A DNA stretch of 61,924 nucleotides from an uncultured Nitrososphaerales archaeon. Its GTDB lineage: Archaea; Thermoproteota; Nitrososphaeria; Conexivisphaerales; UBA164. The notes beneath the pieces are model-generated. The model was not told where the DNA came from and ran no database searches. It saw only the letters and a list, made by a program, of their open reading frames with translations. The stretch lies in the NCBI GenBank assembly GCA_964343315.1, contig CAYFJA010000002.1, positions 1 to 61,924 of the forward strand. The letters are read 5' to 3'. Position 1 is the first letter of the stretch, and the number at the start of each line of letters is the position of its first letter. The position numbers and the translations under genes are program-made. Of this stretch, positions 33,921 to 35,947 are shown in pieces.

Positions 33921-33960
33921 CCTTCTAATTTTTAAGAATATAAATATTCCCTAATCTTAA

Positions 33961-34242
33961 TTAAATCAGCTTAAGAGATTCTAAAGCGTTCAAAATGCCT
34001 TTGTCGCACCTTAAGTTTAAGCTGCTCATGCTTTCGCACCAATCTTTTTCTATGACGGCAAAGGCCTCACCGTATATTTCCTTTAGAGCTTGAACGAGCT
34101 TCTTTGGGTCGTCCAGGTAGTTTTCTTTTGTTATTCCAAAAGCGTGCATTAAGTGCCACTCGACAACCTTTCTCACCGTTTCTCCTCCGTACTTTTCTAT
34201 AGAATTTAATAGATCTAGCCAGACCTGCTCCCGCGGATCCAT
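33961..34242 (-). CDS. Small helical protein, paralog A of a tandem pair (unknown family)
   Basis: 93 aa. It aligns almost without gaps to ORF 34307..34597 (shared GGE.V, W.L.H, P..(L/F)V..LKE.YG, IE, KG(I/L)). It has its own AT-rich upstream spacer. Confidence 0.5.
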   Translation of the reverse strand: MDPREQVWLDLLNSIEKYGGETVRKVVEWHLMHAFGITKENYLDDPKKLVQALKEIYGEAFAVIEKDWCESMSSLNLRCDKGILNALESLKLI

Positions 34243-34306
34243 TTAGTTTAATATACCTTATAATAGTATATAAACAAATTTGTCCAAAACTTTCAAACCA
34301 AGCATT

Positions 34307-34597
34307 TTACGTTTGCTCTTCTTTAAACTTCTTCAAAGTTTCGACTAACCCTTTTCCTGGGTTAATCCCATAAGCCTTTGAAATCTTCTCAACTAAATGA
34401 TTTTCAATTATAGGTTCAAAATCACCGTATACTTCTTTTAAAAACGAAACAAATTCTTCCGGTTTTTTAATAACGTCGTCTAGGCTCATGTTGTGCTGAT
34501 GGTTTAAGTACCAGAGCAAGGAATTTACGACGGCTTCCCCACCAAAATCCTTCAACGCATCGTAAATAACTTTTGATAATGATGTTTTGCCTTTCAT
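34307..34597 (-). CDS. Small helical protein, paralog B of a tandem pair (unknown family)
   Basis: 96 aa. Its ATG directly abuts the TGA of the upstream KaiC-like gene. It is a paralog of 33961..34242. Confidence 0.5.
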   Translation of the reverse strand: MKGKTSLSKVIYDALKDFGGEAVVNSLLWYLNHQHNMSLDDVIKKPEEFVSFLKEVYGDFEPIIENHLVEKISKAYGINPGKGLVETLKKFKEEQT

Positions 34598-35854
34598 TCA
34601 CTTCACCTCAACAAAGTTTAACTCTCCCTTTTCTGCGTCTAATTCGACAGCATAAAGCTCGCTAACCGGCTTCAAGCTTTTCCAGAAGATGTAATTTCCC
34701 TTTCCGCTAAGAGACCTTTTAGCTGTAGCGTATTTAGCGCTTATCCTTAAAGCTTTAAACGAAGGGTAGCCGTACGTAATAGCAAGCCTGTTTAACCTAA
34801 TGTTCATCTTAACTAAGTTTTCCACCAAAAATTCATACCCATTAGGGTCTTTTAAAGCTAGCTCTTCGTTAGATGCTAAGTTAATTATGTTTATTTTTGG
34901 GCCCCTCATAGCTAAACTTTCAATATAACCGTAAACTTTTTTCCAATCGAATCCCAAAGCTTCGTAAGGGACTTCATATATGCTCACGTTTTCGTAAAGC
35001 GAACCCAAAAGGTTCTTGAAGTCGCTCATCAAAGCATCCTTATCTTCGCTCGGGCCAGGCCAATAACCTACCTTATAGCCTCTTAGGACAAAGTCCGAGG
35101 CGGCAAAAACCCAAAAGTACCTTAAATATGTTGGCGGTATGCTTTCGTCTACTTCGTATAAAATATTATATCCAAAGAGCTTTTCAAGTTCAAACTCAGC
35201 TATTTTTGGCCTTGAAATTTTTTGCAACAGCGATGGTTTAAGAAGGGATTCGGGGCTAAATTCTTTTAAAAACCTAATTCCGTTAGAGATAGTAAAGTAA
35301 TACGTGCTTTTTTCTATCGGAAAGCTCCTGTCTTTGATTACTTCTGCCTTTCTCACTTTGCTGCCAAGCACTTCATCGTAGCTTAGGTTTACCACCGCAT
35401 CAGAAACGTACCTAAAGTCCAAAGAACCCATTATGGCCGGCCCCTCAGCTAAGAGAATTAAGGTCCCATCTTTATTTTTTGCAGCCGTGTATAGTAACTG
35501 AATAAATGTTCTCAAAGAGCTAGGCTCGTTTACGCCATAAAGCATAGAGTTAATCGAATCTACAACAACTATTTCGCCCTTCATTAACCCGTTCATAATA
35601 ATGCTGTAAACATGAGAAGGATCGCCTGTTATCATACTTACGACCCCAAAGCTCCCTTTATAGTTTGGGTCGATCTGCGCGAGCTTATCGGTTAGCGATT
35701 TTTCCGGCTCTGAATACGTTATGTATGTGCAGCTTTCCTTTTTGCTGCAAGCTAACAAAGCTAAGTAAGTCTTACCTACACCAGGGTCACCTGAAACCAA
35801 TATAACGTAACTTTTAGTTGTTAAAACATCAACCAGATCCCTTCCCATTCGCAT
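34598..35854 (-). CDS. KaiC/RecA-superfamily ATPase with an intact N-terminal and a degenerate C-terminal RecA-like domain
   Basis: Walker A VSGDPGVGKTYLAL and Walker-B-like IVVVDS in residues 1-190. The second half (~200-418) has similar length and beta-strand patterning (YNILYEVDE...) but no GxxGxGK[ST]. Confidence 0.65.
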   Translation of the reverse strand: MRMGRDLVDVLTTKSYVILVSGDPGVGKTYLALLACSKKESCTYITYSEPEKSLTDKLAQIDPNYKGSFGVVSMITGDPSHVYSIIMNGLMKGEIVVVDSINSMLYGVNEPSSLRTFIQLLYTAAKNKDGTLILLAEGPAIMGSLDFRYVSDAVVNLSYDEVLGSKVRKAEVIKDRSFPIEKSTYYFTISNGIRFLKEFSPESLLKPSLLQKISRPKIAEFELEKLFGYNILYEVDESIPPTYLRYFWVFAASDFVLRGYKVGYWPGPSEDKDALMSDFKNLLGSLYENVSIYEVPYEALGFDWKKVYGYIESLAMRGPKINIINLASNEELALKDPNGYEFLVENLVKMNIRLNRLAITYGYPSFKALRISAKYATAKRSLSGKGNYIFWKSLKPVSELYAVELDAEKGELNFVEVK

Positions 35855-35947
35855 GTAAAATATTTTTAAGCATTTTAATATTTAAGTTTTTATTTTCGAA
35901 AAATATGATCCGTTTACTGTAAAAATTTTGCAAAAATACTTTCAAAA

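Follow-up and report, generated by a model that had tools for sequence, protein, structure and literature searches.

KaiC-like ATPases have been proposed as the main archaeon-specific signalling hubs and, to our knowledge, hardly any of them has been studied except those of the archaellum and of the gas-vesicle system. Makarova, Galperin and Koonin, writing in mBio in 2017, reportedly predicted by computer that KaiC-like hubs work with 'Death-domain-like' adaptors. DUF3227/NitrOD5 has been described as a response-regulator output domain and as part of a KaiC-linked 'archaeal Death domain-like' family (Galperin 2018, PMC5847659, main text and Table S5) and the same paper attributes the KaiC link to Makarova 2017. 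Our literature search on DUF3227/PH0832 found nothing beyond Galperin 2018 (PMC5847659). In haloarchaea, GvpD lowers the level of GvpE in a P-loop-dependent manner and gvpDE are co-transcribed (PMC4390858).

The locus described here shares with the modules predicted in 2017 a KaiC-family ATPase that adjoins a small, all-helical DUF3227-type gene in an archaeon, the presence of multiple family copies per genome, and a domain that is also the output of Thaumarchaeota REC-NitrOD5 regulators. It differs from them in that its small-protein subfamily falls below the PF11537 threshold, the second ATPase domain appears degenerate, small Conexivisphaerales-like genomes carry an unusually large expansion of the family, and a four-helix PH0832 fold is predicted, without a detectable death-fold match. 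We regard the locus as a real further example of the module predicted in 2017 and not as a new kind of system, because the pair had been predicted and the second small gene beside it appears to be a separate resident gene. The reading that we prefer, with a probability of roughly 0.6, is a conserved KaiC-type ATPase–A switch/adaptor module beside a separately promoted paralog, B, of a stand-alone clade. As such, the locus adds a clean and compact case, in which the gene of an ATPase whose domains are predicted to be active in one half and dead in the other is placed stop-to-start with that of a predicted DUF3227 adaptor.

Layout of the locus and its host

The window analysed is a stretch of archaeal DNA of 61,924 nt, in which a trio of genes is flanked by cysS and a serA-like gene:

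34598..35854 (-): ATPase gene, 418 aa; two-domain KaiC-family ATPase with an architecture that appears to resemble that of GvpD
34307..34597 (-): small protein A gene, 96 aa; predicted four-helix DUF3227/NitrOD5/PH0832-fold protein, stop/start-coupled to the ATPase
33961..34242 (-): small protein B gene, 93 aa; DUF3227-like paralog of a distinct, separately conserved 'stand-alone' clade

All three open reading frames are real, lie on the minus strand and occupy the positions given in the initial annotation, whose reading of the junctions was also accurate: the TGA of the ATPase directly adjoins the ATG of A in the sequence, and the AT-rich spacer between A and B measures 64 nt at 22 % GC. No clear compositional contrast had been claimed for the block. 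GC3 does lie somewhat lower in the ATPase (0.43) and A (0.38) than in B (0.50), cysS (0.50) and the serA-like gene (0.53), but the difference is modest and taw3 (0.43) is as low as the ATPase.

The host belongs to the Nitrososphaeria, close to Conexivisphaerales, has a small genome and is not a member of Thermoprotei. Thermoprotei, suggested earlier as the comparison group, was misplaced, as the relatives found were Nitrososphaeria/Conexivisphaerales MAGs. Related loci came from an alignment-based scan, a single ATPase query having given none.

A two-domain KaiC-family ATPase with a single P-loop

The ATPase divides into two halves of the following composition:

35255..35854 (-): N-terminal RecA/KaiC domain, predicted to be active, aa 1–200 (motif scan, 19-sequence alignment, HMM alignment to KaiC CI/CII)
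35768-35791 (-): Walker A GDPGVGKT, aa 22–29 (motif scan)
35555-35572 (-): Walker B IVVVDS, aa 95–100 (motif scan)
34601..35191 (-): C-terminal P-loop-less domain of predicted RecA fold, aa ~222–418 (AF2 and Foldseek)

An intact KaiC/RecA N-domain had been proposed and was borne out, with both motifs present and a score of 52.9 bits (E=4e-14) on Pfam KaiC (PF06745), whose cutoff is 26.6; PF06745 was matched by 19/19 ATPase homologs. HMM alignment to KaiC CI/CII placed E49 with the KaiC catalytic Glu, E78, and K174-D-R176 with the KxR motif. Among the 19 homologs, both Walker motifs, the catalytic acidic residue and KDR were invariant or nearly so, the invariant columns of the 19-sequence alignment being G22, P24, G27, K28, T29, D99, K174, D175 and R176. 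The N-terminal domain is thus predicted to be catalytically competent.

Apart from GDPGVGKT and IVVVDS, the window ATPase contains no Walker A or Walker B-like motif, and a motif scan found no second Walker A in this protein or in 19/19 family members. The second half had been interpreted as the degenerate member of an active-plus-degenerate duplication. The AF2 model of the ATPase (pLDDT 89, pTM 0.85) agrees with this as far as fold is concerned: the order of strands and helices in the C-half parallels that of the N-half, with DESIPP in place of Walker A after strand 230–235 and INIINL in place of Walker B. The top 50 Foldseek matches were all KaiC, with E-values down to 4e-20 and alignments of 450–490 columns against full two-domain KaiC. 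The model therefore supports the C-half as a probable degenerate RecA/KaiC-fold domain. At the level of sequence the duplication left no signal: hhalign of the N-half against the C-half gave a probability of 1.6 %, albeit in a consistent register, and the C-half had no Pfam match in 19/19 members. With hhalign of the halves not significant, it is the predicted structure only that speaks for an internal duplication.

Cyanobacterial circadian KaiC, which provided the best structural matches, has the same tandem two-domain RecA-like architecture. The window ATPase differs from it in having no second P-loop and in being ~100 residues shorter, and neither kaiB nor kaiA is among the locus neighbours, which are cysS and two DUF3227-like genes predicted to encode four-helix proteins. 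A bona fide circadian KaiC was rejected on the single P-loop and on NCBIfam equivalog scores of 40 versus 408 and 11.4 versus 546 bits (NF006799 / TIGR02655).

The architecture can also be compared with that of GvpD. In the haloarchaeal gas-vesicle clusters, GvpD is a P-loop ATPase of the KaiC family whose C-terminal region lacks a P-loop, and gvpD shares a transcript with the gene after it, which codes for a smaller helical regulator (PMC4390858). The window ATPase had no direct match to GvpD_P-loop (PF07088) or GvpD_bR2 (PF20440) at E<=1, and PF07088 was matched weakly in 3/19 ATPase homologs. Order-level relatives passed both of these Pfam models, and hhalign of the full-length ATPase family against these GvpD-passing relatives gave 99.4 %; the C-half alone against their GvpD_bR2-bearing region gave E=6e-5 and a probability of 65 %. 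By these profile comparisons the architecture appears to resemble that of GvpD. The partners differ, that of the window being a 96-aa acidic DUF3227-like protein and GvpE a ~190-aa leucine-zipper-like activator. The locus contains no gvp genes, and a genome search with PF00741 (gvpA) gave no match, the controls likewise giving none.

Small proteins A and B are divergent DUF3227/NitrOD5 members

Paralogy of A and B, as stated in the initial annotation, was evident by BLASTP, in which they are 27 % identical across 82 aa with a single gap (E=1e-12), and the shared motifs listed there correspond to conserved columns of the small-protein family alignment. The description of both as of unknown family can now be replaced. 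By profile, transitive links and fold they fall in the DUF3227/NitrOD5/PH0832 superfamily, and both are divergent members of DUF3227/NitrOD5 (PF11537). The PF11537 model scored 21.3 bits on A (E=2.9e-4) and 16.4 bits on B (E=0.01), both below the cutoff of 27, and sub-threshold NitrOD5 matches (E<0.01) were seen in 8/19 small-protein homologs, with none listed above the cutoff. The small-family profile, A3, matched PDB entry 2p9x (PH0832) over residues 24–94 at E=5e-4, and the PH0832 fragment itself scored 116.8 bits on PF11537. Searched against 1.8e9 proteins, the same profile matched P0024 (E=9e-15) and P0027 (E=1e-12); these two (32.7 and 35.8 bits, respectively) and P0078 pass the PF11537 cutoff, which links the small family to PF11537 transitively. 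The profile also matched REC-NitrOD5 response regulators.

The AF2 model of A (pLDDT 90) has four helices and aligned by Foldseek with 2p9x over 95 columns at a TM of 0.82/0.83 and a probability of 1.00. No other credible fold was found for this model, the next Foldseek matches having probabilities of <=0.14. PH0832 of Pyrococcus horikoshii, the structural representative of PF11537, matches A in length and in its four-helix fold, but sequence identity with A is only ~20 %. The six-helix Death fold (DD/PYD/CARD) had no structural support here, as PYD structures 2do9 and 9lji gave TM values of 0.23–0.26 with probabilities of <=0.06 and E>3, and the model of A has four helices. Both A and B are acidic (pI 5.9 and 5.1), which makes a DNA-binding role unlikely for either. 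The subfamily appears in public databases as 'hypothetical protein' without a Pfam domain, and proteins listed merely as such thereby gain a family assignment.

The ATPase–A pair is a conserved module

A small-protein homolog lies on the same strand and <=27 nt downstream at 29/58 related ATPase 3' ends, and the boundaries of the two genes are 0–1 nt apart in >14 loci. The association, for which a check of neighbourhood conservation had been proposed, is therefore present among the Nitrososphaeria/Conexivisphaerales relatives; it also occurs in more distant families of this order (L042-L047) and a single time in another family of the class (L054). The pairing is not obligatory, since 29/58 ATPase genes lack a small gene beside them and 16 small genes stand as orphans. 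Several clades are common to the ATPase and partner trees. Taken together, the ATPase and A form a conserved two-gene module that has been repeatedly duplicated in this lineage. The many natural paralog pairs, with a conserved orphan adaptor, make the lineage useful for work on specificity and for co-evolution-based interface prediction, and the set also serves the choice of constructs for a first biochemical test of the 2017 hypothesis.

One element upstream of the pair may bear on its transcription:

35877..35886 (-): TATA-like box CTTAAATATT, with its centre ~28 nt before the ATG of the ATPase (sequence reading)

At the orthologous loci L014 and L015, AT-rich TTAAAT/TTAAATA elements are found in the corresponding position. 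As archaeal TATA boxes standardly lie at about -26/-27 from the transcription start site, CTTAAATATT is likely to be the promoter of a leaderless ATPase–A transcript.

The proposal of a regulatory module made of the ATPase and a small helical partner remains plausible, as the link is kept in related genomes. In such a module the ATPase would oligomerize like other KaiC/RecA-family rings, and its ATP-bound or hydrolysis state would govern the availability, conformation or stability of the small helical protein, which would be the adaptor or output element of the switch. The ATPase would then take the part played by the REC domain in thaumarchaeal REC-NitrOD5 regulators and by GvpD towards GvpE in haloarchaea. 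An ATP-driven switch with a helical adaptor/output protein is the likely function; co-transcription of the pair, oligomerization and an interaction between the ATPase and A are what we infer.

Small protein B as a separate gene

The initial annotation took the ATPase to be co-transcribed with both small genes and took A and B to be a tandem duplication. Extended to function, this reading is of one operon that arose by local tandem duplication, in which A and B would both be adaptors of the ATPase, for example as an A:B heterodimer on the hexamer. The two genes do lie next to each other on one strand and are clear paralogs, and two more genomes (L014 and L015) keep the ATPase–A–B trio. Because A is not followed by a strong oligo-T terminator, transcription may run on into B, and PH0832 was crystallized with four chains, which makes oligomerization in the family plausible. 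We nevertheless consider a single operon of this origin rather unlikely. In the small-protein tree A and B are not sister clades, and B belongs to a separate clade (support 100/99) that takes in the stand-alone genes of L052 and L053. Four genomes of the genus (G003, G001, G007 and G008) carry a B-type gene by itself at this cysS/serA-like junction, where they lack the ATPase–A pair. A second small gene accompanies only 3/~30 modules, and the GC3 of B (0.50) agrees with that of the flanking genes, unlike that of the ATPase and A. Only A is stop/start-coupled to the ATPase, and B is preceded by a conserved element of its own:

34267..34274 (-): TATA-like box TTTATATA in the A–B spacer, centred ~28 nt upstream of the B ATG (sequence reading)

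In L014 and L015 this box recurs as CTTAAATA with unchanged spacing, although the proteins are no more than ~50 % identical, and it is likely to be B's own promoter. On this comparative evidence, neither the tandem duplication nor the transcript shared with both small genes is upheld, and B appears to be a separate resident gene beside the ATPase–A module. At the cysS/B site, cysS identities give three roughly equidistant lineages and so favour neither insertion nor loss of the ATPase–A pair there.

Wider readings of the module

A broader reading would have these small-genome Nitrososphaeria, with up to about 10 ATPase paralogs per genome of ~1.1–1.5 Mb, run a combinatorial, fast-evolving network of KaiC switches and adaptors, in which a DUF3227-type adaptor of its own co-evolves with most ATPases and conserved orphans such as B act in trans; we hold this to be quite unlikely. 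Under it, B would be the cognate partner in trans of a partner-less ATPase paralog of 407/408 aa, which forms the most divergent clade of the ATPase tree, as B does of the small-protein tree. Alternatively, B would heterodimerize with A and so couple two ATPase switches. If the network reading were true, the family would dominate signalling in a lineage that has few two-component systems.

The conserved signalling module that we prefer also has to be weighed against a selfish, mobile or conflict cassette of the defence or toxin–antitoxin kind, which would explain the copy number and the fast evolution of the ATPase–A pair. Up to about 10 ATPase matches occur in some genomes of ~1.1–1.5 Mb, with many copies at contig ends in a repeat-like manner, and between the same genomes identity is 47 % for the ATPase and 53 % for A, versus 71 % for cysS and 85 % for the serA-like gene. 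At a site that is otherwise syntenic, some genomes have the pair and others do not, and its GC3 is below that of its neighbours. Against this, PADLOC returned no match to any defence family, no nuclease or toxin domain was found, and the surroundings of 25 paralogous modules showed neither a transposase or integrase nor any further recurrent mobility gene or recurrent third gene, the flanks being diverse housekeeping genes. The homologs of the small proteins are, moreover, response-regulator output domains (PMC5847659), and a cassette of this kind is very unlikely. A further rival would make the window ATPase an accessory to assembly or to a motor, in the manner of ArlH/FlaH of the archaellum or of a KaiC-like protein associated with pili, with the small protein as structural cofactor. 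Although such roles are reported for KaiC-like single-domain ATPases (PMC8978795, PMC10117864), this is extremely improbable, as no pilin, archaellin, ArlI/J or platform gene lies beside any of the 25 loci examined and the window ATPase, unlike ArlH, has two domains.

Organization of the locus

The KaiC-like ATPase and small protein A constitute a two-gene module (ATPase-A) of a kind that had been predicted before; this example is unannotated. The three ORFs lie where the initial annotation had placed them, all on the minus strand.

34598–35854, minus strand: KaiC-like ATPase, ORF of 418 aa
34307–34597, minus strand: small protein A, ORF of 96 aa
33961–34242, minus strand: small protein B, ORF of 93 aa
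34267–34274: TATA-like box TTTATATA in the A–B spacer, centred ~28 nt upstream of the B ATG and kept in orthologous loci
35877–35886: TATA-like box before the ATPase, read in the sequence and similar to the box before B

The ATPase stop codon (TGA) directly abuts the ATG of A, and A and B are separated by an AT-rich spacer of 64 nt (22 % GC), both as first described. The presence of TATA-like boxes before successive same-strand genes seems to indicate a promoter apiece and argues against a tricistronic operon in which both small proteins serve one ATPase as adaptors, a model that we regard as unlikely. From standard archaeal promoter geometry, we infer two leaderless transcripts, one carrying ATPase-A and the other B. 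GC3 was 0.50 for B, like its neighbours, and lower for the ATPase (0.43) and A (0.38). A further TATA-like ATATTTATATT lies in the 40 nt that separate B from the serA-like gene (33921–33960).

The ATPase

The only Walker-type motifs in the ATPase were GDPGVGKT (aa 22–29) and IVVVDS (aa 95–100), and a motif scan found a second Walker A in none of 19 homologs, in agreement with the description of an intact N-domain followed by a half lacking a P-loop. The N-half passed Pfam KaiC PF06745 (52.9 bits versus a cutoff of 26.6), whereas the NCBIfam circadian KaiC equivalog scored 40 bits against a cutoff of 408 bits; judged by sequence, the ATPase is far from a bona fide circadian KaiC. The P-loop, D99, the acidic residue E49 (aligned to KaiC E78) and a K174-D-R176 motif were invariant or nearly so in the 19-sequence alignment. 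The C-half had no Pfam match in any member, and the similarity of the two halves by hhalign was not significant (probability 1.6 %). The AlphaFold2 (AF2) model (pLDDT 89, pTM 0.85) contained a second alpha/beta domain in which strands and helices follow the same order as in the first, and the best 50 Foldseek matches in the PDB were all full-length two-domain KaiC proteins (450–490 aligned columns, E down to 4e-20), with a low TM of ~0.4 because the inter-domain orientation differs from that of KaiC. Predicted structure thus supports the proposed active-plus-degenerate duplication.

Distant homologs of 444–469 aa from other families of the same order passed both GvpD_P-loop (PF07088) and GvpD_bR2 (PF20440), and aligned with the window ATPase family over its full length (hhalign probability 99.4 %; C-half alone E=6e-5). 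The window ATPase itself had no direct GvpD Pfam match; its alignment to these relatives suggests a GvpD-like architecture. GvpD, whose architecture is related, shares its transcript with the gene that follows it, gvpE, and lowers GvpE levels in a P-loop-dependent manner (PMC4390858).

The ATPase family is expanded in related genomes. Whole-genome searches found three copies in the window's genome (contigs C2, C49 and C15) and up to 10 matches in certain genomes of ~1.1–1.5 Mb from the same genus or family; a 5.8-billion-protein index contained only three close relatives of the window ATPase. The two paralogs outside the window (C49:2865-4088, 407 aa; C15:14631-15710, 359 aa, with an internal deletion) are two-domain ATPases with no DUF3227-like gene beside them, A and B being the only small homologs in this genome. 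Contigs of metagenome-assembled genomes (MAGs) are often interrupted within the ATPase gene, so that usually just the C-half and the partner gene remain (contig-end breaks in relatives G001, G002, G003, G008 and G015, e.g. G008:C67:1-723, G002:C42:3-722 and G015:C17:3-500). Such breaks would fit a collapse of the assembly at the multi-copy conserved N-domain, and per-genome copy numbers are therefore probably underestimated.

Family and fold of the small proteins

A and B are genuine paralogs, as a proper pairwise alignment confirmed (BLASTP, E=1e-12; 27 % identical across 82 residues, one gap). All copies of the small protein lack a Pfam domain, and the sole name from any source was 'hypothetical protein'. 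The family can nevertheless be named, contrary to the initial annotation, as DUF3227, now NitrOD5 (PF11537). The two proteins gave sub-threshold matches (E=2.9e-4 and 0.01), as did 8 of 19 homologs. A 19-sequence profile matched PDB 2p9x, the crystal structure of Pyrococcus horikoshii PH0832 (E=5e-4, residues 24–94), and the PH0832 fragment from that search scored 116.8 bits on PF11537. AF2 modelled small protein A as four helices (pLDDT 90), and this model resembled 2p9x (TM 0.82/0.83, probability 1.0), with no other credible structural match by Foldseek. HMMER scanning of 1.84 billion representative proteins returned 673 clusters at E≤1e-3, and best matches including P0024, P0025, P0027 and P0078 passed the PF11537 cutoff. 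The profile also matched REC-NitrOD5 response regulators of 216 aa in other Nitrososphaeria, at their C-terminal domain. No structural resemblance to a death fold was seen (PYD matches reached TM 0.23–0.26). Both proteins are acidic (pI 5.9 for A, 5.1 for B), and direct DNA binding therefore seems unlikely.

Domain doublets also occur in tandem in several proteins of ~210–225 aa, and P0030 (502 aa) has two DUF3227-like domains (aa 192–259 and 325–408) within long low-complexity acidic or Ser/Pro-rich linkers.

Linkage of the ATPase and small protein A

The association recurs in related genomes, in MAGs titled Nitrososphaeria, Nitrososphaerales, Conexivisphaerales or Thaumarchaeota archaeon rather than in the Thermoprotei originally suggested for comparison. 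A small-protein homolog lay ≤27 nt downstream on the same strand at 29 of 58 ATPase 3' ends, and 29 of 48 small genes were directly behind an ATPase, with ORF boundaries 0–1 nt apart in >14 loci. Pairing extended to other families of the order (L042–L047) and, once, to a different family of the class (L054:2074-4100 in G194). There, a bona fide double-P-loop KaiC (PF06745, 332 bits, two stretches) precedes a 161-aa protein with a DUF3227-like domain by 131 nt, indicating that the link extends to a two-domain KaiC that is fully active. In the ATPase tree, one clade was partner-linked, three subclades had no partner and the outgroup did have one, so that the link looks ancestral, with losses; several clades were common to the ATPase and partner trees. 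No recurrent third gene or mobility gene was found around the modules and PADLOC gave no defence match; we consider a selfish or defence-type cassette improbable.

Galperin et al. point to a 2017 paper for a link of the DUF3227 family with KaiC-like ATPases (PMC5847659). In our proposal, the ATPase would be an ATP-driven KaiC-type switch, and its state would be coupled to a small helical protein serving as adaptor or output. The 2017 paper reportedly put forward the idea that KaiC-like ATPases serve in archaea as signalling hubs to which such adaptors are linked. The switch–adaptor reading draws on two analogies, GvpD/GvpE and the role of NitrOD5 as the output domain of REC-NitrOD5 response regulators (PMC5847659). 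That the ATPase is instead a filament-assembly accessory is very improbable. The value of the module lies in annotation and in a rich natural set of paralogs for testing the KaiC-hub hypothesis.

B as a separate gene

The overall reading of the initial annotation stands for the active/degenerate ATPase and the A/B paralogy, but its tandem-duplication story needs correcting: in addition to its own conserved TATA-like box and neighbour-like GC3, B belongs to a separate clade and occurs alone at the syntenic site. A and B (each from the window and orthologous loci L014 and L015) fell into distinct clades (support at least 100/98), the B clade having a long stem and also holding stand-alone genes. 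Four genomes of the genus (G003, G001, G007 and G008) have a lone B-type gene flanked by cysS and the serA-like gene, with no ATPase-A, in the same syntenic position as in the window. Identities in cysS gave three roughly equidistant lineages and favoured neither insertion nor loss of ATPase-A at the site. Compared with G004/G005, the window shows much greater divergence in the ATPase (47 % identical) and A (53 %) than in cysS (71 %); its serA-like gene shares 85 % identity with that of G003/G007/G008.

Several genomes of the genus (L052:931-5146, L053:582-4794 and L001:2102-7887) carry a partner-less ATPase paralog (408–413 aa), an MFS transporter, cysS and then B, with ATPase-A between cysS and B in L001. 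Both this partner-less ATPase and B belong to the most divergent clade of their respective trees and, speculatively, B might be the detached partner of this ATPase.

Other stand-alone DUF3227-like subfamilies have conserved contexts (L056:2898-3185, L057:2681-2968, L058:2582-2869; L059:2611-2901, L060:2716-3000, L061:2513-2797). One adjoins a 527-aa gene (N-terminus MKVSSVEE...), which we tentatively take to be an NAD(P)HX epimerase/dehydratase, and another, in a sister genus, is flanked by a large helicase-like gene and a methyltransferase-like gene. Downstream of B, the serA-like 2-hydroxyacid dehydrogenase is intact (304–309 aa) in the window and other relatives and split into two ORFs of 149 and 142 aa in G005 (L001:7999-8873 / L014), likely through a frameshift or assembly error.
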